Assembly (NCBI GenBank): GCA_041665485.1
Contig: JBAYIT010000001.1
Coordinates: 140,270 to 204,269 of the forward strand
DNA: 64,000 nt
Direction of reading: 5' to 3'
From: Candidatus Shapirobacteria bacterium
GTDB taxonomy: Bacteria; Patescibacteriota; Microgenomatia; UBA12405
Positions 40,801-62,240 of this stretch are shown one piece after another. Position numbers and translations under genes: made by a program. How positions within the stretch are numbered: the stretch's first letter is position 1; every line of letters begins with the position of its first letter. A model generated the notes under the pieces. That model saw only the letters and a program-made list of their open reading frames with translations. It had not been told where the DNA came from and did no database searches.

Positions 40801-40840
40801 TTATAGCAAACTAAAACCCCTCCGATAGCTATCGGAGGGG
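40801..40840 (-). terminator. Rho-independent terminator candidate after pilin paralog 1
   Basis: Perfect 24-nt palindrome CCCCTCCGATAGCTATCGGAGGGG (40817-40840) followed on the minus strand by TTTTAGTTT. Confidence 0.5.
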
Positions 40841-40867
40841 TTTGGAAAACAAGATCAGTTTCCAGAC

Positions 40868-41978: not shown

Positions 41979-42335
41979 TTAATTTGGCCCCCAAATAACA
42001 GGTTTGGTGGCGGAGATACCGGTGAGGCGCTCGATAACACCGGAAAGAATAAAAGCCGAAGAAATAATAACCAACCCTAAAATACTTTGCCAAATTTTGG
42101 CCCAAGCCAGCTCGGTTTTTTTGGAATCACCATTGGCAGAAATATATTCGTAACCGGCGATAATGAATTGAAAAACAACATAAATAGCGCCGATAGTGCC
42201 AACAATTTTAAAAATATTGCTCATGAAGATAAAGAGACCGGAGCCGGCATCGCTTTTATATGCAGTGGGGTTGCCAACTGTACCAAAAATTCCGGCTGCA
42301 GAAGCGGGAATTTTAGAAACTAGAAACCCCCCCAT
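41979..42335 (-). CDS. pilin-like two-TM 'GDSKK-loop' protein, paralog 4 (start uncertain; track ORF extends to 42488)
   Basis: TM1, loop SANGDSKKTELAW and TM2; upstream 42339-42420 holds a 13-nt inverted repeat and is more likely intergenic. Confidence 0.45.
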   Translation of the reverse strand: MGGFLVSKIPASAAGIFGTVGNPTAYKSDAGSGLFIFMSNIFKIVGTIGAIYVVFQFIIAGYEYISANGDSKKTELAWAKIWQSILGLVIISSAFILSGVIERLTGISATKPVIWGPN

Positions 42336-42444
42336 GCCCGTCATCGCGAGGCCGAAGGCCGTGGCGATCCCAACGAGATTGCTTCGTCCCCCGATAGTTA
42401 TCGGGATCCTCGCAATGACGTATGGGGTTATTTGTTTGATCATG

Positions 42445-53342: not shown

Positions 53343-54097
53343 TGATTAAGTGGCTGGTTTTGGGGTTAAGTTTTTTGTGTTTTGCTACGGGTGTTTTAGC
53401 GGAGGATAAGGTAATAGTCAGGGTTGAGGCGCCAGGGAATGGGGAAATAAAATTGGGGGAAAAAATAACTTTGGAAGTGGTGGTTGAGGCAGGGGGGGCA
53501 AGGCTTTCGGCGGTTGATGTTGATTTGAGTTACGACTCGACTAAGATGACGGTGAATAAGGTGACAATGGGAGAGGCGATGTCGAAATTAAAAGCAACGG
53601 AAGCGGGAGGGGTGGTGAGTTTGGCGGGAGTGATCATGAGTGGTAATAGTGATTTGGTGACGGGCAGGATTAATCTGGGGACAATTGAAATTACTGGTAA
53701 AACGGCTGGAAAGATTGGTTTTACCTTAAAACGAATGGAAATAGTTGGCTATGGGGCAGGAAAAAGTGTGGTGGGAGTGGTGAGTGAGTATGGAGGGATG
53801 GTGGCGACAGGGGCGTCAGCCTTACCCACTTCTACTGGCGCTGGGACACCAACTTTGCCTGTTTCAAATTCTGACTGTAAAAAGGCAAATCTTGATTTAA
53901 GCAGTAAAGATGTTGGAATGGCAGATGGAAATGTTGATACACTCGATTACTCGTTTGCAAAAACAAGAGCTTTGGCAAGGGCAAGAGCAAATAGTGGTGG
54001 CTTATTGATGGCTGATATTAACGGGGACTGTATAGAGAATATGGCTGATTTGGGCTTGATAATAAGGCAAATGATATTGAAAATGGAGAGCCTCTAG
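53339..54097 (+). CDS. secreted cohesin-like + dockerin-like protein
   Basis: Signal peptide; cohesin-like beta region (ITLEVVVEAGGARLSAVDVDLSYD); C-terminal GMADGNVDTLDYSF and MADINGDCIENMADLGLII dockerin-like pair. Confidence 0.55.
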   Translation: MMIKWLVLGLSFLCFATGVLAEDKVIVRVEAPGNGEIKLGEKITLEVVVEAGGARLSAVDVDLSYDSTKMTVNKVTMGEAMSKLKATEAGGVVSLAGVIMSGNSDLVTGRINLGTIEITGKTAGKIGFTLKRMEIVGYGAGKSVVGVVSEYGGMVATGASALPTSTGAGTPTLPVSNSDCKKANLDLSSKDVGMADGNVDTLDYSFAKTRALARARANSGGLLMADINGDCIENMADLGLIIRQMILKMESL

Positions 54098-54128
54098 AAA
54101 CCTTAAGTGTGATATATTATCTTAGTTT

Positions 54129-54295
54129 GGGGTGATTAGCCCCACCTTCGTCCCGATAGCTATTGGGACTACGGCGGGCAAGTCAGTTAAAGTTGAGTAG
54201 TTTAACAATTTGGGTGTGGGGATACCCCACAATTAGAGTTAGAGCACTCCGACGTGACGTCGGAGGGGTCAATGGTTCGAGTAGTTTAAAAATTT
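54129..54295 (+). repeat. two degenerate tRNA-like pseudo-copies (54129-54211 and 54212-54295) in tandem upstream of tRNA-Ile
   Basis: Each copy starts with GGGTG and carries arm-like hairpins plus a T-arm-like GGGGTCAATGGTTCGAGT, but cannot close an acceptor stem; direct repeat GAGTAGTTTAA[A/C]AATTTGGGTG at both junctions. Confidence 0.4.
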
Positions 54296-54369
54296 GGGTG
54301 ATTAGCTCAGTTGGTTAGAGCACCGTCCTGATAAGACGGGGGTCAATAGTTCGAGTCTATTATCACCCA
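54296..54369 (+). tRNA. tRNA-Ile (anticodon GAT)
   Basis: 74-nt cloverleaf folded by hand: acceptor GGGTGAT/ATCACCC, D-arm GCTC/GAGC, anticodon arm CCGTC-CTGATAA-GACGG, T-arm AATAG-TTCGAGT-CTATT; CCA is not encoded. Confidence 0.85.
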
Positions 54370-54374
54370 CACAA

Positions 54375-54650
54375 ATGCTAGGATATGTATATATTCTCGT
54401 GAGTGAGAAAAATGGTAGATATTATGTTGGTAGTAGCTTTGACCCAAAGAAGAGATTGGTTGAATTTCATAATTGTGGCAAAGTGAAGGCAACTAAATAT
54501 ATGACTCCATGGAAAATTGTTTTTGTCCAACAATATGAAGATGTTTCTATGGCTAGGAAAATCGAGCGTAGAATAAAAACCCTTAAATCAAGGAAAATCA
54601 TTGAAAAGATAATTGAGGATGGCAAATGTAATATAATAACTAGTGGTTAG
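54375..54650 (+). CDS. small stand-alone GIY-YIG nuclease-domain protein
   Basis: 91 aa; GYVYILVSEKNGRYYVGSS...RLVEFHN is the GIY-YIG core; lies 5 nt after tRNA-Ile and its last three codons run into a tRNA-derived fragment. Confidence 0.75.
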   Translation: MLGYVYILVSEKNGRYYVGSSFDPKKRLVEFHNCGKVKATKYMTPWKIVFVQQYEDVSMARKIERRIKTLKSRKIIEKIIEDGKCNIITSG

Positions 54651-54703
54651 AGCACTCCGACGTGACGTCGGAGGGGTCAATAGTTCGAGTCTATTATCAC
54701 CCA
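54643..54703 (+). repeat. partial tRNA 3' copy (D-loop to 3' end) with a replaced anticodon hairpin
   Basis: GGTTAGAGCAC + CTCCGACG-TGA-CGTCGGAG + GGGGTC-AATAG-TTCGAGT-CTATT-ATCACCC-A; T-arm and acceptor 3' strand are identical to tRNA-Ile; 35 nt (54647-54681) are identical to 54239-54273. Confidence 0.5.
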
Positions 54704-54828
54704 CAAGCAATTTTGCTCAAGCAAAATTGAAATTTTCAATTTCCAATAACCAATTTACAAAATAAAAATGAGAAAAATTGATTTTATAAAAACATTGGGG
54801 ATAGTAATGGCGGTGGTGTTGGTGGTAT

Positions 54829-56100
54829 TTGGGGGAATTGAAAATTTGTGGAGAACGATTAAAAGCATTAAGTATTAAATTAAGAATCAAGAACTTAGAG
54901 CTAAGAACTAAGATTTTTTTCTTTGTAATTTTGATCCTAGTGGTGATGGGAGGGGCGGGGTGGTGGTTTATGAGAGGAGAGGATGGGGGAATTTTGTCAC
55001 CTTTGGGAATGAAGAAACAAGAGAATGGCCTTAAAATAGTTGGTTTTTTGCCGACTTGGATGGTGGGCAAAACAAAAATCTATGGGGAAGAACTGGACAG
55101 GTTGGTATTTTTGGGAGTAGAAGTAAATGAAAAGGGAGATTTGGTTTGGGATGTTCAGGGAAAAAAGATAAATAATCCTGACTACCTTAAAATAAAGGAG
55201 GAGATTAAAAAGACAGGGGGCGAAAATATTTTGGGAGTGAAGTTGTTTAAAGACGAAAAACTGAAAAAGTTGATGGCTAGCAGTGAGGCGAGGGGGAGGC
55301 TAGTGGAGCAAGTAATGGCAGCAGTAGAGGCAGGTAATTTTGACGGGGTTAACCTTGATTTTGAGTATCAATATGACCCGCTGGCGGTGACGGAGGAAGT
55401 TTTTTTGGGATTAATTGCCGAAATGAGGGGGGCGGGGATTGAAAACATAAGCCTGGACGTGTTTGCTAACACAATTATTAAGAGCGGATATGAAAGACTC
55501 TTCAAGCTGGTGGGGGCGGTTGATGAGGTATTGGTGATGGCTTATGATTTTCACGCCAGTGGAAGTAGTAGCGCCGGGCCGGTGGCGCCATTGGGGGCAC
55601 CAACGGGTGAGAGAAGTATTTTGGAAGTGTTGGAGAAAATTGAAAGTAGCGGGGTGGATAAAAACAAAATAACGATTGCTTTGCCTTTATATGGCTACCA
55701 ATGGAAGACGGAAACGACCGAACTCGGATCACCGGCAACAGATTATGTGGCAATGTTGACTTATGCAAAAATGGGGGAATTTTTGCAGAGTGACGAGTTT
55801 TTAGGTAGAGTTAATCAAAATTGGGACGAATTGAGCGCCACGCCATGGATATGGCTCAAAAAGCAGGAGACAGTGAGCTGGAAAGAGAGGGTTAAAGTGG
55901 GAAAAGTGTGGAAAACGGTGGCAAAATCGAAACAGGTTGAGGTGATACATCAGGTTTATTACGAAGACCAGAGGAGCCTAATGGAAAAAATTAAGGCAAT
56001 TCGAGAGGCAGGAATAAATAGTATTGGCTTTTGGGCACTAGGGTATGAGGGAGAGACGAATTTGCTTGGTACAATAAGAAATGATCAAAACGATAATTGA
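54829..56100 (+). CDS. glycoside hydrolase family 18 (chitinase-like) protein with N-terminal membrane anchor
   Basis: GH18 catalytic motif FDGVNLDFEY (DxxDxDxE). Confidence 0.7.
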   Translation: MGELKICGERLKALSIKLRIKNLELRTKIFFFVILILVVMGGAGWWFMRGEDGGILSPLGMKKQENGLKIVGFLPTWMVGKTKIYGEELDRLVFLGVEVNEKGDLVWDVQGKKINNPDYLKIKEEIKKTGGENILGVKLFKDEKLKKLMASSEARGRLVEQVMAAVEAGNFDGVNLDFEYQYDPLAVTEEVFLGLIAEMRGAGIENISLDVFANTIIKSGYERLFKLVGAVDEVLVMAYDFHASGSSSAGPVAPLGAPTGERSILEVLEKIESSGVDKNKITIALPLYGYQWKTETTELGSPATDYVAMLTYAKMGEFLQSDEFLGRVNQNWDELSATPWIWLKKQETVSWKERVKVGKVWKTVAKSKQVEVIHQVYYEDQRSLMEKIKAIREAGINSIGFWALGYEGETNLLGTIRNDQNDN

Positions 56101-56752
56101 TTTCTTTTTGCATATTGATAAAAATTTGGCTTGGATAATTGGAGCCTTTGGGGGGTGGAGCTATGCCATATTATTTTTGGTTATTTTTGTGGAGACAGGG
56201 TTGGTGATAATGCCGTTTTTACCGGGTGATTCTTTGCTTTTTGCGGCGGGAGCCTTAACGGCTTCTTTGGGGGTATTTAATATATTTTTGTTGTGGGGAT
56301 TAATGATAATGGCGGCATTTGTTGGGGACACAGTCAATTATTGGATAGGACATACTATTGGGTCGAAAGCTTTTGACCCAAATTACAGGTTAAAAGTTTT
56401 CAGTTACGAGTTACGAGTTTCGAAAATACTGAAACCAGAATATTTAATCAAAGCGCAGGGATTTTATGATAAACATGGGGGGAAGGCGATAATACTGGCC
56501 CGTTTTGTGCCGATTGTGCGAACTTTTGCCCCATTTGTGGCCGGGGTGAGCAAAATGAGCTACCCTAAGTTTTTATCGTTTAATTTGGTGGGAGGAGCCC
56601 TGTGGGTGTCGGCGTTTGTGTGGGGAGGGTACTTGTTTGGAAATATACCATTGGTTAAGGATAATTTTCACTATTCAGTGGTTTTGATTGTGTTAATTTC
56701 GGTAGTGCCGATTGGGGTGGAGTGGGTGAAAAGTAGGAGGGCAAGAATTTAA
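56081..56752 (+). CDS. DedA-family (VTT domain) membrane protein
   Basis: LVIFVETGLVIMPFLPGDSLLFAAGAL signature; in-frame AGTTACGA repeat at 56395-56420. Confidence 0.8.
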   Translation: MIKTIIDFFLHIDKNLAWIIGAFGGWSYAILFLVIFVETGLVIMPFLPGDSLLFAAGALTASLGVFNIFLLWGLMIMAAFVGDTVNYWIGHTIGSKAFDPNYRLKVFSYELRVSKILKPEYLIKAQGFYDKHGGKAIILARFVPIVRTFAPFVAGVSKMSYPKFLSFNLVGGALWVSAFVWGGYLFGNIPLVKDNFHYSVVLIVLISVVPIGVEWVKSRRARI

Positions 56753-56816
56753 GAATCTGCGAATCTAGAATTTAGAAATAAGACTAAAGATTGGTGTAAA
56801 ATAGAGAAAATAAAAT

Positions 56817-57992
56817 ATGGTTGATAAAGGGGTAATTGAAACTGTTAGAGGACATGATGGTGTATTTCGACCGATTGGTGTGGTAGCCGAGAGTGGGGGA
56901 GTGGGAGAAGAGGAGTCGAGGTTGGCAAGGAGGGGTGCGTTTGTGGAAAGGTTAGTCGGAGAGAGATGTGGGAATCGAAGACCATATGGTGAAGAAGCCA
57001 TGCGGTTATTTAATTTAAGGAGGGAGTGGGAGGATAATTGTAAGAAGACTGGCTGTGTTGAACAATGGCGGTGGGGAGAGCCAAGATATTTACGGGCGGC
57101 GGTTGGCGACGGGGAGGCAGGAGAAGAAGGGGGTTGGCTGGATGAAGAGTATAAAAGGTATTTAACAGGGGTGGTTGGTGTAGAGCTAGTGGGGGAGAAA
57201 AAAGTTGTTTCTGGAAAACCATGGGAGGTGGCGGAGGCTCCGATTGACGGGCCTCGTTGGCGGAGAGTAGCAGAGCAGTTGGAACCGATTTTAAACCATT
57301 CATCCGGTGGAAGTAACTGTGTTCCAGAAGTAGCAACTTGGTGGGTGGCTTTAGCGAGAGGTGTGGACGGGACTGATAATTTGGAGAGATTAAGGAATGA
57401 GGTAATGGCAGATGTAGCTAGGGTTAGGCAAGATAGAAGCTTTACAAGGGGAAGATCTGATTGGTTGGATTCCAAATATCTTTATCGTGGATTAAGTGCA
57501 ACTATTGACGACAGTGGAGTTGGTCCGGGCAGACTGGGAGATACGATTCCGTATATAGATTTTTTGGGAACTAATGGTTTTTCTTGGCAAGAGCCGCAGG
57601 TTAAACAATTGGAAAGAGTAGTTAATTCGGCGGACGCTGGTAGGGTCATTTTGTCAAATTTTGCTGGGACACAAGAGCGATTTTGGGGACATCCAGTGAT
57701 AGCTTTAAATGTAATTAGTGAAATCGACGCTAGAGTAGTGATAACAAAGCCGGAGAATGAGTTTTTCAGAGAGGCAAAGTTTGGCCAACAGAGGGCACCG
57801 AGAGTAGGAGAAAAATGGACGTTAATTGGGGCACATTATGCGATGATAATAGGTTGGGACGAGAAACAGTTTATGGTGTTAGATCCACAGACGGGGATGG
57901 TTTTGGGAGTAAACAGAGATCTCTTTAACCAGAGACTGAAAGCTAGCGACTTAGTTTTGGATGGAGCAATTACGATTGATACAAGTAGATAG
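56817..57992 (+). CDS. hypothetical protein (soluble, Arg/Glu/Gly-rich)
   Basis: 391 aa with no recognisable domain. Confidence 0.45.
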   Translation: MVDKGVIETVRGHDGVFRPIGVVAESGGVGEEESRLARRGAFVERLVGERCGNRRPYGEEAMRLFNLRREWEDNCKKTGCVEQWRWGEPRYLRAAVGDGEAGEEGGWLDEEYKRYLTGVVGVELVGEKKVVSGKPWEVAEAPIDGPRWRRVAEQLEPILNHSSGGSNCVPEVATWWVALARGVDGTDNLERLRNEVMADVARVRQDRSFTRGRSDWLDSKYLYRGLSATIDDSGVGPGRLGDTIPYIDFLGTNGFSWQEPQVKQLERVVNSADAGRVILSNFAGTQERFWGHPVIALNVISEIDARVVITKPENEFFREAKFGQQRAPRVGEKWTLIGAHYAMIIGWDEKQFMVLDPQTGMVLGVNRDLFNQRLKASDLVLDGAITIDTSR

Positions 57993-58133
57993 AAAATAGC
58001 GAGTGATTTGGTGGGTTGATTATATTGAGATAATTAGATAGAATAGGTGCACTTGATGCTAGAAGGAGAAATAAAGTTTAACGGAATGGGGAGGGGGAGT
58101 ATCGCGTAGATTTTGTTTGGGAGAATGGAATTG

Positions 58134-58166
58134 GCCGAAGGCATCAAGCTTTCGGCATTTTTTTTG
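58134..58166 (+). terminator. Rho-independent terminator
   Basis: Hairpin GCCGAAGGCATCAAGCTTTCGGC followed by ATTTTTTTTG. Confidence 0.6.
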
Positions 58167-58246
58167 CCGAAAATCGTACATTAAATCAGGCTTGGGCCCG
58201 CCTACGTTGCACTACGGCGAGGTAAACCTGTGGCTTAGTCTAATGA

Positions 58247-58320
58247 TGGGCCCATGGCTCAGTTGGCTAGAGCACCTCATTTGCAATGAGGAGGTCAGGA
58301 GTTCGAGCCTCCTTGGGTCC
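58247..58320 (+). tRNA. tRNA-Ala (anticodon TGC)
   Basis: 74-nt cloverleaf: acceptor GGGCCCA/TGGGTCC with one G-U pair, anticodon arm CCTCA-TTTGCAA-TGAGG, T-arm AGGAG-TTCGAGC-CTCCT; G3:U70 Ala identity pair present. Confidence 0.85.
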
Positions 58321-58527: not shown

Positions 58528-58699
58528 TAAATTGTTGATAAATTTTAATAAAGCAAATGGTGGATGCCTAGGTAGTCGAGACCGATGAAGGACGCAGAAG
58601 GCGGCGAAACAGATTGGGGAGTTGCCAACAAACGGTGATCCAATCAAATCCGAATGGAGAAATCCCGGCCCGAGCAATCGGGCTGAGCCACTGTTTCAC

Positions 58700-58835
58700 G
58701 GAGATAACAAATTACAAATCTACAAGTTCCAAGCAAATCACAAATTCAAAATTACAAGTTCCAGATGTTATATTTGAAATTTGTTTTTTGGAAATTGTTT
58801 GGAAATTGTTTTTTGTGAATTTGGAATTTCTGTGA
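58700..58835 (+). other. ORF-less intervening sequence / expansion in the 23S 5' domain (helix 9-10 region), built from AATTTCCAAACAAAT-type word repeats
   Basis: About 130 nt inserted between ...CACGGAGATAAC and GTGAAGCGGTGGC... where E. coli has a short helix; the two halves are roughly self-complementary. Confidence 0.5.
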
Positions 58836-59161
58836 AGCGGTGGCGGGTAAGCCGGGGAAGTGAAACATCTCAGTACCCGGAGGAAAAGAAATCGTATTCC
58901 GTCGTAAGACGGACATAGGAGATTCCGTTAGTAGCGGTGAGCGAAAACGGAAAAGCCCAAACCTGTCGCAAGACAGGGGTTGTAGGGTTTGGTATAAGGC
59001 ATTGAAAATCCAGAAAAACGTCCTGGAATGGGCGGCCAAAGAGGGTGAGAGCCCCGTATTTAAATGATAAGTAAATGCTGACCAAATACCTGAGTACTAC
59101 GGGACACGCGAAATGCCGTAGGAACCTGGGGAGACCAATCTCCAAGGCTAAATATCTCGAC

Positions 59162-59201
<40 letters not shown>

Positions 59202-59921
59202 ATACTGCAGATCGCAGGGTGAAATATATCTGAAACCATTTGCTAACAAACAGACAAAGCTCCGTAAGGGGTGATGTCGTGCCTATTGAAGAATGAGCCC
59301 GCGAGTGTTCTCAATTACCAAGTTTAATCCCCGATGGGGTGGAGGCGTAGCGAAAGCAAGTCTGAATAAGGCGATTAGGTAATTGGGGATGACCCGAAGC
59401 CACTTGAGCTAACCCTGGGCAGGGTGAACTTCGATGAAAATCGAAGGGAGGCCCGTACGGATCAGAGCTGCAAATCTGTCCGATGACTTGGGGTTAGGGG
59501 TAATATGCCAATCGAAAGTGGGAATAGCTGGCTCTCTCCGAAATATATATAGGTATAGCGCTTGGTGTTCAACGACGGGGGTAGAGCTACTGGATGAATG
59601 TTTTCAGCGCAAGCTGAGGCATTTAACCAAACTCCGAATACCGTTGTTCTAAGCCAGGCAGTCAGTCCGACCGGGCTAAGCTGGCCGGGCAAAAGGGGAA
59701 GACCCCAGACTCTCATCTAAGGTCTCTAAATCTATGCTAAGTGGGAAAGGTAGTGATTTTCCTCAGACAGGCAGGAGGTTGGCTCAGAAGCAGCCATCCT
59801 TTAAAGAAAGCGTAACAGCTCACTGTTCGATTTGTCCCGACGCAAGTTGGGACGGAGGAAGATTGCGCCGAAAATGTAACGAGGCTAAAGCATAGTACCG
59901 AAGGTGGAGAACTCGTCCTTT

Positions 59922-60062
59922 GGACGAGAAATTTCAATAATCAATAACCAATTTCCAAACAATAACCAATAACCAATTTCCAAATTTACAAACTTTTGTT
60001 TGTTATTTGAAATTTGTTATTTGTTTGGAACTTGTAGGTTTGTAATTTGGAATTTCCCGTCC
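59922..60062 (+). other. ORF-less intervening sequence at the helix-45 position of 23S, a known IVS site
   Basis: GGACGAGAAATTT...AATTTCCCGTCC form a terminal stem around about 115 nt of A/T-rich word repeats, inserted before the conserved CAGAGGATGGGTTGGTAGG. Confidence 0.55.
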
Positions 60063-61417
60063 AGAGGATGGGTTGGTAGGAGAGCGTTGTGGAGGCGGTG
60101 AAGGTTGGCTGTAAGGCTGGCTGGAGCGTCCACAAGTGAGAATGCGGGCATGAGTAGCGTAACTCTGGTGAGAATCCAGAGCGCCGAATATCCAAGGTTT
60201 CCTCAGCTACGTTGTTCGACTGAGGGTTAGGCGATCCTAACACGAACCTCGTATAATGCGGGGGTAGTGGACGGATAACCGGTTAATATTCCGGTCCTTT
60301 CTTGAATTCGTTTTAAGTTGGGGCATGACGACAAATGAAAGACTAGGTCTTGCAGTGAAATTGCAGGATTTAAGTATTAAGTTAGAAGGGGATTGGGAAA
60401 TCCGCCTCTTCGTTATAAAATGAAATACGAGTAGAAGTCTGGCGAAAGCCGGGCAATCTGGTTACGTTTATTTGTCCAAGAAAATTGTCGCAAATAGAAT
60501 TCAGGAAATTCGTACCAAAACCGACACTGGTGGATAGGTCGAGTAGACCAAGGCGATTGGAAGACAGATGGTTAAGGAACTTGGCAAATCAACTGGGCGT
60601 AAGTTTTACAAGATGCCCTGCCCCGATTAGTATCGGGGCTACAACAAAAGAATGCACGGCGACTGTTTACCACAAACACAGGTCCATGCAAACCCGTAAG
60701 GGGAAGTATATGGGCTGAAACCTGACCGGTGCCAGAAGGTTAAGAAGGCGGGTGATATCGCAAGATTGAGCCTGTTTTATAAGCCCTGGTGAACGTCAGC
60801 AGTAACTCTAACTGTTCTAAGGTAGCAAAGTCCTTTGTCGGGTAAGTTCCGACGCGTATGAAAGGTTTAACGACTGTGCAACTGTCTTAACTGTCTATCC
60901 AGCGAAATTGAAAGAGCGGTGAAGATGCCGTTTAGTTACTACAGGACAAAAAGACCCCATGAAGCTTTACTGGATCTTTACATTGATGAGAACTTAATGA
61001 TTGTCGAGCGTAGGAGGGAGCCTTCGGGCGTCAATGGAACACCTCCCTTTGTTAATTTCAAGTCTCACCTACTCCAATGGATGTTGGAGGGGAACCGTGT
61101 ATGGTTGCTAGTTTGCCTGGGGCAGGCACCTGCAAAAAAATAACGCGGGTACACAAAGGTCACCTTGGTCCGGCTAGAAATCGGACTATAAGTGCAAAAG
61201 CAAAAGGTGGCTTGACTGCGAGACATACTTGTCGAGGTCCCCGATTTATCGGGGGCATTTCAACCCAGTTTACTGTGTTGGAATCAGGGTCGAAAGACGG
61301 TTTTAGTGATCCTCGTGACCCACTGGTATGGGCACGGGCTTACTGGATAAAAGCTACTCTGGGGATAACAGGCTAGTCGCGTCCGATAGTTCATATTGAC
61401 GACGCGGTTCGGCACCT

Positions 61418-61699
61418 TAGCCAATTAAGGCTTATCGGGGTGGGCGGAAGTAATTCCGTTAGTCTGTTTTTTTTAATATCTAGCTCATAACGGTGAACGC
61501 TATATGCCAACACCGTGGGAAGTCCTCCGATGTGTTTCGGAGTGACCCCGTAACGACTTGTTGTTCGACGTCACGTCGAACACGGAGTCTTCTTTTTATT
61601 AAGGAGGCTAACACGCTAGCTCCTACTCTATCCGATGTTTATCGGATGACAAGAGGATGAAGGTATAGTCTAAAAATAACCTATTTATAGGTGAAATTG
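61418..61699 (+). mobile_element. candidate ORF-less group I intron in 23S, inserted after the U of GGCACCU (E. coli position ~2449)
   Basis: 282 nt interrupt ...CGGCACCT|...|CGATGTCGAC; the 5' exon ends in U and the insert ends in G; GGGGTG near the 5' end can pair with the exon CACCU (P1 with a U-G pair); AAGGTATAGTC resembles the conserved S/P7-3' element. Confidence 0.45.
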
Positions 61700-62240
61700 C
61701 GATGTCGACTTGGCGCATCCTGGCCTTGAAGAAGAGGCCAAGGGTTGGTCTGTTCGCCCATTAAAGCGCTGCGTTAGTTGGGTTCAGAGCGTCGCGAGAC
61801 AGCTCGGTCTCTATCCGTAGTAACCGTTCGATTCTTGAAGGGATTCACCTACAGTACGAGAGGACCTAGGTGAGGAAACCTCTAGTGGGCCAGTTGTTCC
61901 GTCAGGGGCAACGCTGGGTAGCTACGTTTCTATTTAGATAACTGCTGAAAGCATCTCAAGCAGGAAGCTGACCCTAAGATTAGGAATCGTTTTCCGAGCA
62001 ATCGGGATTAAGATCACCGGGAGACTACCGGTTTAATACTTTGGCGGTGGAAGGTCCGTAAGGATTTAAGCTTACCAAAGGATGGATCAAATAAATTTTT
62101 CAACAATTGCAACTCAATTTAGTCGCTAATATAGCGAAATCCTTGTTATGTTTTTTGAGTTCTGGCCAATGTGTGACCACGTTGGAGGAACTCAAAATTC
62201 CATAACTTCGGATTTTTTATTTTTAATAATTTGGTTTTTG

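Follow-up and report, generated by a model that had tools for sequence, protein, structure and literature searches.

What is a very small nuclease gene doing among the pieces of a broken tRNA gene? In a metagenome-assembled genome (MAG) of Candidatus Shapirobacteria, which belong to the candidate phyla radiation (CPR, Patescibacteria), a gene for a GIY-YIG nuclease of 91 amino acids (aa) stands directly behind an intact tRNA-Ile(GAT) gene, and partial, hairpin-bearing copies of the same tRNA gene lie on both sides of the pair. We analysed this locus within a window of 64 kb (the window being the whole stretch of DNA under study), where the nuclease gene occurs once, and compared it with related loci, designated by L numbers. 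The nuclease gene, the hairpin modules and a complete tRNA gene with the same anticodon form a cassette that travels together. The cassette interrupts a resident tRNA gene, the 5' end of which is found at the left border and the 3' end at the right, each abutting a hairpin, and the internal tRNA keeps the cell supplied; the cassette is polymorphic and decays. Probably it is a selfish element of the homing type which, like SegB of phage T4, breaks a tRNA gene and carries the replacement with it. The design occurs at many tRNA genes of ultra-small bacteria and Bacteroidota and is apparently undescribed.

The insertion in the tRNA-Ile gene

Relatives for comparison at this very site were found via the downstream GH18 gene (54829-56097). 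In one close relative (L087), whose GH18 protein is 81% identical and whose gene order is the same, a plain tRNA-Ile(GAT) gene stands at the site between the same upstream and the same terminator-like downstream flank, without the GIY-YIG gene, the tRNA fragments or the hairpins. Two more distant Shapirobacteria (L090 and L091) are also empty, and another locus (L089) keeps only a homologue of the long hairpin hpA described below, with compensatory changes. When aligned to L087, the left flank of the window continues into the first 11 nt of a partial tRNA copy, unit A, where the two sequences diverge, and the right flank follows another partial copy, unit D. Since L087 holds only a plain tRNA-Ile(GAT) gene at a locus of the same order, this alignment identifies the segment from about 54141 to 54673 as an insertion. 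The intact tRNA-Ile gene lies inside it, as both of its flanks are unlike those of the empty allele; the tRNA sequence is identical to that of L087. Cargo and resident tRNA thus share one sequence in the window, and only the continuity of the flanks assigns units A and D to the resident gene. A first-pass annotation had regarded the intact tRNA as the undisturbed target of insertion, which had to be given up, the intact copy being part of the insert and the resident one having nt 27-43 replaced by a hairpin.

The remaining structural claims of that annotation held, namely the intact tRNA-Ile(GAT), a 91-aa GIY-YIG open reading frame (ORF) 5 nt past it with its end inside a second tRNA copy, a perfect hairpin in place of the anticodon arm of that copy, two degenerate tRNA-like units upstream with the same hairpin in the nearer one, and a 35-nt direct repeat, which proved to be the perfectly identical block of a longer repeat of 45 nt (54238-54282 and 54646-54690, in units B and D, 44 of 45 nt identical). 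All features are on the forward strand. The 5' flank in common with the empty allele is AT-rich and promoter-like (AAGTGTGATATATTATCTTAG, 54105-54129), and its positions 54105-54125 are identical at 21 of 21 nt to the sequence immediately 5' of the tRNA-Ile gene in L087. Unit A (54130-54211) is a degenerate tRNA-like copy. Its first 11 nt (GGGTGATTAGC, 54130-54140) are those of the resident tRNA-Ile gene, are contiguous with the conserved left flank and mark the left junction of the insert. The long imperfect hairpin hpA follows in the D arm (54141-54178; predicted fold -27.9 kcal/mol, z = -3.1), with an inner TCCCGATAGCTATTGGGA of degenerate CCGAY type, and its site, after TAGC, is that of the hairpin pairs in the Parcubacteria-type cassettes described below. 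The rest of unit A (54179-54211) comprises TCAGTT (tRNA nt 12-17), a degenerate remnant of the T arm and the spacer AGTTTAACAATTT.

Unit B (54212-54295) is a pseudo-tRNA composed of nt 1-5, the hairpin TGGGGATACCCCA, the 3' side of the D arm, the hairpin CTCCGACGTGACGTCGGAG in place of tRNA nt 27-43 (54247-54265), nt 44-60 and the spacer AGTTTAAAAATTT; its homologues, often arrayed, were found in L001, L098, L099, L100 and L108. A 22-nt repeat with 95% identity lies at 54195-54216 and 54279-54300. The intact tRNA-Ile(GAT) gene, which is the replacement or 'cargo' copy (54296-54370), was called by ARAGORN and scored 70 bits with the Rfam tRNA model in a local scan; that it is absent from the whole-window Rfam scan at the gathering score reflects a miss of the speed filter, for which the gene itself is not the cause. 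The single-domain GIY-YIG gene (54375-54650) follows after 5 nt (CACAA), and its TAG stop codon (54648-54650) is located inside GGTTAGAGC, in the D arm of unit D. This last unit (54645-54703) holds what the resident tRNA-Ile gene has left on its 3' side, namely nt 18-26, the hairpin and nt 44-73; it reaches from the D loop as far as the discriminator base and passes into the original 3' flank. Its hairpin in place of nt 27-43 (54655-54673) is again CTCCGACGTGACGTCGGAG, that is CTCCGACG-TGA-CGTCGGAG, and perfect. Further downstream, CAATTTTGC-TCAA-GCAAAATTG (54708-54729) forms a hairpin that resembles a terminator for the tRNA transcription unit and is found in L087 with a different loop. A strict terminator scan did not report it, and simple promoter and terminator scans gave nothing above the shuffled background.

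The partial copies were rejected as working tRNAs, as neither ARAGORN nor Rfam called any of them in the window and their hairpin loops are palindromic and variable in length. Rfam scans of the window region and 16 related loci returned tRNA matches only, and the leaders matched neither a ribozyme nor another known RNA motif. The tRNA-Ile gene is uninterrupted, and no match to Intron_gpI at E <= 10 was detected in 54000-54800. No tyrosine or serine recombinase was found in or beside the insert of about 530 nt, in which the GIY-YIG gene is the sole credible ORF.

The 91-aa protein matched the Pfam GIY-YIG family (PF01541) with 51.9 bits against a curated cutoff of 22.6 (E = 9.7e-14). Across 24 relatives, little or no variation is seen at Y6 (at least 90%), Y16/Y17, G19, R27, H32 and E64. 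In the AlphaFold2 model (predicted local distance difference test score 93.8), strands at residues 3-10, 16-21 and 46-54 and helices at 24-32, 57-70 and 73-82 build a single GIY-YIG core, with a three-stranded sheet and helices, plus a C-terminal helix. Among solved structures, the best sequence matches were the uncharacterised UPF0213/YhbQ proteins BH0048 (1ZG2, E = 2.6e-14) and EF2693 (1YWL, E = 1.2e-10), followed by Slx1 (about 1e-6), all of which share the same minimal GIY-YIG core, and by I-TevI (E = 6e-5); the top PDB fold matches from Foldseek were GIY-YIG domains in the same order, UPF0213, Slx1 and, much weaker, I-TevI. Neither Pfam nor the AlphaFold2 model revealed a second domain or a DNA-binding module (NUMOD, IENR1, helix-turn-helix), and Pfam gave no match to an HUH (Y1) transposase domain. 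The ratio of nonsynonymous to synonymous substitution rates (dN/dS) was 0.07-0.23 in eight pairs of the family. By sequence we class the protein as a minimal GIY-YIG nuclease of the UPF0213/Slx1-like type, and it evolves under purifying selection. A profile search at E <= 1e-10 collected 4,022 clusters (50% identity), counted regardless of tRNA nesting. No phage relatives were found in IMG/VR or INPHARED, and the plasmid search gave one weak match; a phage origin, for which there were only weak PHROG and PADLOC homing-endonuclease matches, was rejected.

Recurrence and architecture of the cassettes

Relatives of the GIY-YIG gene that abut a tRNA gene were identified in Shapirobacteria, Kuenenbacteria, Gracilibacteria and a Bacteroidales MAG, at genes for tRNA-Ile(TAT), tRNA-Ala(GGC), tRNA-Ala(TGC) and tRNA-Pro(CGG), and each of those contigs carries a partial copy of the same tRNA whose anticodon arm is replaced by a palindrome with the shared motif YCCGAY...RTCGGR. 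For the counts that follow, 80 loci from a scan of a genome collection with only the C-terminal motif of the protein were pooled with the contexts of homologues and the window, giving 88 GIY-YIG copies. A tRNA gene on the same strand lies within 30 nt of 70 of the 88 copies (61 downstream, 9 upstream) and within 200 nt of 82, and the host tRNAs represent about 20 anticodons. The reverse search took no protein input and used a DNA pattern of tRNA pieces in which a hairpin is substituted; it returned 44 metagenome contigs, about 35 of which have an adjoining GIY-YIG ORF. Fragments and hairpins therefore recur elsewhere together with the nuclease, and the same architecture in more than 100 independent contigs excludes chance. 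In 33 of 81 cases (5.6 expected), a GIY-YIG protein and its nearest neighbour share the anticodon of their tRNA; many close pairs are found at different tRNAs, and jumps from one tRNA identity to another do take place. Placement is conserved at, for example, tRNA-Phe across many Parcubacteria; one MAG holds two copies (L041 and L045), and there are arrays without a GIY-YIG gene as well as pseudogenised or deleted ORFs.

Tandem arrays comprise six units of about 72 nt ahead of an intact tRNA-Ala(GGC) gene in L079 (760-1260) and three units each in L100 and L108, copy numbers that are unreliable because all sequences are metagenome assemblies, where repeats may collapse or be mis-joined (the array of L001 contains an N gap). 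The consistency across more than 120 contigs of different projects nevertheless speaks against an assembly artefact. In L079, nt 1-26 of tRNA-Ala, a hairpin and a spacer make up each unit, and the spacer contains a promoter motif of Bacteroidota type, TAnnTTTG. This contig is labelled Bosea thiooxidans and is probably mis-binned; its GIY-YIG protein is 95% identical to that of a Chitinophagaceae MAG (L054). Full-length hairpin-substituted copies were called by ARAGORN as 'tRNA-???(TA)' or 'tRNA-Stop(TTA)' in L106 (2767-2841), L109, L113, L117 (1108-1184), L119, L121 and L135. The '???-TA' call in L106 and the 'Stop-TTA' call in L117 were rejected as real tRNAs and are hairpin artefacts. Two tandem GIY-YIG genes surround one tRNA gene in L003 (3001-3683) and L074 (1992-2543); the L074 copies are identical (79 aa), and dN/dS between the L003 copies is 0.12.

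The cassettes fall into two architecture classes that follow the protein subfamilies. The KSRKIIEK subfamily, to which the protein of the window belongs, goes with replacement of the anticodon arm (15:1), where exactly tRNA nt 27-43 are replaced. The KRKDYIEK subfamily of Parcubacteria goes with insertion of a hairpin pair into the D arm (30:1). Cassettes of this D-arm class have, 5' of the ORF, an exact copy of nt 1-10/11 or 1-15/16 of the neighbouring tRNA, followed by hairpin 1 (HP1, YCCGACG..GTCGGR) and hairpin 2 (HP2, YCCGAC..CGTCGGR), after which the tRNA sequence resumes at the very next nucleotide and continues to about nt 24, with a few nt left before the ATG. This immediate resumption indicates that the hairpin pair was inserted precisely and without duplicating the target. 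In these cassettes the ORF ends where the intact tRNA starts, and behind this tRNA there is often a further copy with a complete 3' end and, in the D arm, the same pair of hairpins. In 31 of the 88 copies, the ORF runs through tRNA nt 1-7 and stops at T8-A9-G10. We rejected a special mechanism for this stop, since 31 of 88 is close to the one in three given by the reading frame, and read it as a consequence of the tight junction. A host ORF 5' of the cassette in L028 (about 1940-1960) also runs into the 5' piece of the tRNA and stops at T8-A9-G10, and it may be frequent in these compact genomes that an ORF ends just inside a tRNA gene.

Five loci (L031, L033, L036, L051 and L085) show that the outer pieces belong to one gene, as the 5' acceptor strand of the left piece pairs at 7 of 7 positions with the 3' strand of the hairpin-interrupted copy on the right, and the intact tRNA between them has the same anticodon and a different acceptor stem. 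We traced the locus of L036, from Liptonbacteria, in relatives via a flanking 203-aa ORF. The empty state is found in L136 and L139 (flanks 81-87% identical), with a plain tRNA-Ile(TAT) gene, neither GIY-YIG gene nor hairpins, and an acceptor stem (GGGCCAG/CTGGCCC) and D arm (TAGCTTAGCGGTTAAAGCA) that match the outer pieces of L036. In the filled state, L036 itself, the resident gene is split at nt 10/11: GGGCCAGTAG and a hairpin pair precede the GIY-YIG gene, and to its right stand an intact foreign tRNA-Ile(TAT) gene (GGGCGCA/TGCGCCC), a hairpin pair and the resident remainder ending in CTGGCCCA. A third relative (L137) is filled and has lost the nuclease, with the same split gene and hairpins; of the ORF region only a remnant of about 90 nt is left, and the cargo tRNA-Ile(TAT) is a different one again. 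Together, the three allelic states are what the cycle of invasion, fixation and decay of a selfish nuclease gene predicts. The foreign intact tRNA and the chimeric D-arm pieces inside split resident tRNA genes are a sign of co-conversion. An AbiEii/DUF6922 pair and a LAGLIDADG-like ORF stand beside the Liptonbacteria tRNA-Ile loci (L137, 3595-4517; L139, 523-1176), indicating that other mobile or defence genes cluster there.

The hairpin modules

Across the cassettes, hairpins with the motif YCCGAY...RTCGGR are present in every tRNA copy that is non-functional. Perfect hairpins with CCGA arms occur at 3.8 per kb within 200 nt of a GIY-YIG gene versus 0.14 per kb elsewhere, and other hairpins are not enriched (6.4 versus 5.5 per kb). 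At the stem positions left free by the search pattern, 25, 24 and 19 of the 25 distinct sequences are complementary, against 17.0, 12.4 and 7.5 in the shuffled expectation, with two to four pair types each. The mismatches in 248 hairpins include 36 G.T and 26 A.C, which is no bias to G.U on the sense strand, so an RNA-only role is not indicated. The window and L099 share hairpin and flanks at 100% identity, although their GIY-YIG proteins are only 64% identical, and L063 and L064 likewise have these sequences in common, though the synonymous divergence (dS) of the ORFs is about 1.1. The same 19-nt hairpin is found in pseudo-copies of tRNA-Lys(CTT) and tRNA-Ile. Hairpins are also nested in one another's loops, and L064 differs from L063 by a clean 40-nt insertion of a double hairpin within HP2; the inserted sequence resembles the leader of tRNA-Arg(GCG) cassettes. 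Origin of the hairpin from a palindromised local anticodon stem was considered and rejected; it fits L001 (CCGAT) and fails at the window, Ala and Pro loci, the motif being independent of tRNA identity.

Hairpins of this style are used more widely in the genome, as CCGA..TCGG stems of at least 5 bp number 12 in the window versus about 2 in shuffles. The 23S rRNA gene (58537-62103) contains an ORF-less, group-I-like insert of 294 nt (61424-61694) near E. coli position 2500, whose match to the Rfam model Intron_gpI is weak (21.6 bits, below the gathering score). It has three hairpins of CCGA or TCGA style, CCTCCGATGTGTTTCGGAG, GTTCGACGTCACGTCGAAC and ATCCGATGTTTATCGGAT, the second of which (61563-61581) is indeed the relative of the cassette hairpin that had been pointed out earlier. 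A separate expansion of the 23S gene at about 61219-61284 (66 nt versus 18 in the Rfam consensus) holds TCCCCGATTTATCGGGGG. Elsewhere in the window, AAAACCCCTCCGATAGCTATCGGAGGGGTTT (40815-40849) is a perfect, terminator-like palindrome of CCGAT type, and a complex nested palindrome at 42335-42425 contains CCCCGATAGTTATCGGG. In a Gracilibacteria contig (L003/L015), a CCCGATGTAAAATCGGG hairpin at about 1192-1208 precedes the 5' end of the 16S rRNA (AGAGTTTGATCCTGGCTCAG) by about 25 nt, at a distance of 1.8 kb from the GIY-YIG cassettes.

Mobility of the cassette and comparison with known systems

If the cassette spreads by homing, the nuclease would break a cassette-free tRNA gene, and a filled allele would then be the template from which repair of the break copies the cassette, with tRNA sequence serving as both homology arms. 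Conserved boxes in the D arm and T arm could permit occasional jumps to other tRNA genes. The hairpins would disrupt the target site as well as the long direct-repeat homology in the leftover copies, and perhaps also provide the cis site of the nuclease. Repeated break repair could give rise to the tandem pseudo-tRNA arrays (units A and B in the window, up to six units in L079), and the cassette may be transcribed from the tRNA promoter. Like the genes of free-standing homing endonucleases, the GIY-YIG gene lies outside any intron or intein and is sporadically present at a fixed site, and the GIY and YIG tyrosines, Arg27, His32 and Glu64 are kept, a sign of nuclease competence. Such a parasitic strategy would be compact. 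Its targets are among the most conserved, indispensable genes, so that every genome offers targets and homology arms, and the spare copy lets the host survive. The first-pass annotation had offered two ideas about function. A selfish cassette that includes the GIY-YIG gene is borne out by the insertion polymorphism with the empty allele of L087, and a 'tRNA-gene-mutating system' holds in the limited sense that the resident copy is disrupted and a replacement copy supplied.

The GIY-YIG endonuclease SegB of phage T4 is free-standing, recognises a motif conserved in the tRNA T arm and spreads with neighbouring tRNA genes through break repair (PMC2330249), and it drives tandem amplification of the tRNA-segB segment through recombination at microhomology (PMC13096335). 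The cassette resembles it in that a GIY-YIG gene is physically tied to tRNA genes. However, the cassette protein is a single domain of 85-95 aa from the UPF0213/Slx1 branch, whereas SegB is a phage protein of more than twice the size, and the cassette is found inside its target tRNA gene, together with a same-anticodon replacement tRNA and conserved hairpin modules. SegB has about 220 aa, with a DNA-binding region. Seg families gave a weak match only (SegE_GIY-YIG, E = 0.0015, below the cutoff). The homing endonucleases of introns and inteins (e.g. I-TevI) and the tRNA group I introns of Patescibacteria are likewise selfish elements in an essential gene, with the product kept and with empty and filled alleles, but the cassette restores function by a whole tRNA gene and not by splicing, and Rfam detected no ribozyme in it. 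A published survey of Patescibacteria tRNA introns makes no mention of GIY-YIG genes or hairpins. Integrase islands and archaeal integrative elements also displace tRNA fragments to their borders, as at the tRNA-Thr locus of Caldiarchaeum, where an element splits the tRNA gene and the population is heterogeneous (PMC3293823); they differ by their recombinases and duplicated attachment (att) core, where the cassette has neither, measures about 0.5 kb and substitutes hairpins. The cassette works like the SegB-type free-standing homing endonucleases, minus their typical DNA-binding domain, and is not an integrase island, an intron or an HUH element.

The cleavage target, the type of substrate and the role of the hairpins are putative in this reading, and several points weigh against homing. 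The internal tRNA-Ile equals that of the empty allele, and it is not apparent why a nuclease that cuts this gene should leave the internal copy alone. The protein lacks a DNA-binding domain and is closer to the structure-specific UPF0213/Slx1 proteins than to I-TevI or the Seg enzymes. Strong purifying selection, together with saturated synonymous sites between cassettes at the same tRNA, points to long retention, which is equally compatible with domestication. The hairpins are conserved beyond the needs of homing, staying identical across saturated dS in both pairs described above, and plain homing gives no account of the 40-nt hairpin-pair module that itself inserts in L064. The comparison also draws on metagenome assemblies only, with their risk of mis-assembled repeats as in the gapped array of L001. 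Because homing leaves the escape of the internal tRNA, the conservation of the hairpins and the insertion of a bare module unexplained, a transposition-like account in which the hairpins are the substrate of the nuclease is kept alive, and some room is left for the weaker addiction or decoy readings.

A further account, which we put forward tentatively as a possibility, is a natural mobile element of cellular genomes, of the 'cleave-and-rescue' type, in which a structure-specific GIY-YIG nuclease that lacks a DNA-binding domain would act via its own conserved double-hairpin modules, carry a replacement tRNA and invade the loops of structured RNAs (tRNA D loops, anticodon arms and possibly rRNA or intron loops). 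The synthetic 'Cleave and Rescue' system, reportedly described by Oberhofer, Ivy and Hay in 2019, is engineered, Cas9-based and eukaryotic. The cassette shares with it the linkage of a nuclease to a functional copy of an essential gene and the disruption of the resident copy, and resistance of the rescue copy would be putative here. If this account is true, the cassettes represent a new nuclease-only class of hairpin-guided insertion element, beyond another homing endonuclease.

In the transposition-like account, which we consider doubtful, movement would be directed by the hairpins, and the double-hairpin modules would be the ends of the element or themselves the mobile unit. The Slx1-like nuclease would cut single-stranded hairpins or cruciforms of the donor, and the cassette or a bare module would be pasted or copied into loops of structured-RNA genes with no duplication of the target, a logic like that of IS200/IS605 or REP/RAYT but with a GIY-YIG enzyme. 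Hairpin pairs flanking full cassettes as direct repeats, precise insertions without target duplication, the fresh 40-nt double-hairpin insertion of L064 inside another hairpin, nesting of hairpins in each other's loops, extreme conservation of the hairpin sequence, the structure-specific action of the nearest structural relatives of the nuclease, and pairing kept with several pair types and no sense-strand G.U excess all point in this direction. Nevertheless, the flanks of the filled alleles are those predicted by double-strand-break repair from a filled donor, and CCGAY hairpins are not exclusive to cassettes but also occur as ordinary terminator-like and rRNA or intron hairpins in this genome. 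GIY-YIG enzymes hydrolyse DNA and, to our knowledge, are not known to join it. IS200/IS605 and REP/RAYT elements also combine short conserved hairpins with a small nuclease gene and insert without target duplication, but their enzymes are HUH tyrosine transposases with covalent intermediates, and the cassette has no HUH protein.

An addiction or decoy system appears improbable. Here the nuclease would destroy the resident tRNA gene and a linked resistant tRNA would rescue the cell, or it would attack tRNA as RNA, with the tandem anticodon-less pseudo-tRNAs as RNA antitoxin decoys, in a layout resembling that of type III toxin-antitoxin systems (ToxIN-like), where tandem RNA repeats 5' of an endoRNase toxin inhibit it. 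The tandem hairpin-substituted units 5' of the nuclease gene (six in L079, three each in L100 and L108, subject to the assembly limits given above), the full-length cloverleaf-like copies with a closed anticodon arm in L106 and L117, and the combination of a disrupted resident and a supplied cargo tRNA are in line with it. However, most array units are truncated, lacking the T arm and the 3' acceptor strand, and are not tRNA-shaped, the D-arm-type cassettes hold only a 24-nt tRNA piece, and cargo and resident tRNA are identical in the window. We know of no GIY-YIG RNase.

We give very little credence to a housekeeping YhbQ-like nuclease that shares tRNA operons, with the fragments as by-products of replication slippage or unequal crossing-over. 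UPF0213 membership by sequence, strong purifying selection and conserved placement such as that at tRNA-Phe in many Parcubacteria agree with this explanation. It is largely refuted by the empty alleles, that is, by presence and absence among close relatives at two independent loci (the window, where L087, L090 and L091 have no such gene despite the YhbQ/UPF0213-like sequence of the protein, and Liptonbacteria), and a foreign tRNA inside a split resident tRNA, nuclease-less remnants, about 20 host tRNAs and two copies in one MAG also stand against it. Hardly credible, finally, is the remnant of an integrase-mediated island at the tRNA 3' end with att direct repeats, the sense in which site-specific insertion and excision had first been suggested, because, although 30 nt of the tRNA 3' end are duplicated on both sides of the GIY-YIG gene, there is no recombinase in or beside the insert, the left junction follows nt 11 in the D arm, the duplicate begins in the D loop with its anticodon arm replaced, and the same design recurs without integrases.

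In CPR and Bacteroidota genomes, the cassettes account for tandem tRNA-like arrays, pseudo-tRNA debris and false calls of 'suppressor' or undetermined tRNAs, and their debris could pass for suppressor tRNAs in genome annotation. The foreign cargo tRNAs indicate that tRNA genes of reduced genomes are replaceable horizontally. If the favoured reading, a homing-type cassette, is true, a large branch of the uncharacterised UPF0213/YhbQ family gains a biological role. The searchable literature reports neither tRNA nesting nor hairpin modules for UPF0213 proteins, and neither GIY-YIG cassettes of UPF0213-like type nested in tRNA genes nor CCGAY hairpins were found described in the full-text literature searched, outside which much subscription literature lies. 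The eukaryotic Slx1, for its part, requires Slx4 and carries a RING domain. What should surprise a specialist is the replacement tRNA as cargo, the precise hairpin plugs, a nuclease of about 90 aa and the spread over CPR and Bacteroidota. With hairpin sites of 17-40 nt, this nuclease is a candidate minimal system for studies of sequence- or structure-specific DNA cleavage.

The window contains no 16S rRNA gene, and the rRNA operon is fragmented at 54370-58248, with protein genes (GH18, a DedA/VTT-family gene and others) between the tRNA-Ile gene and the tRNA-Ala-23S-5S genes; the same gene order is found in L087, L090 and L091.

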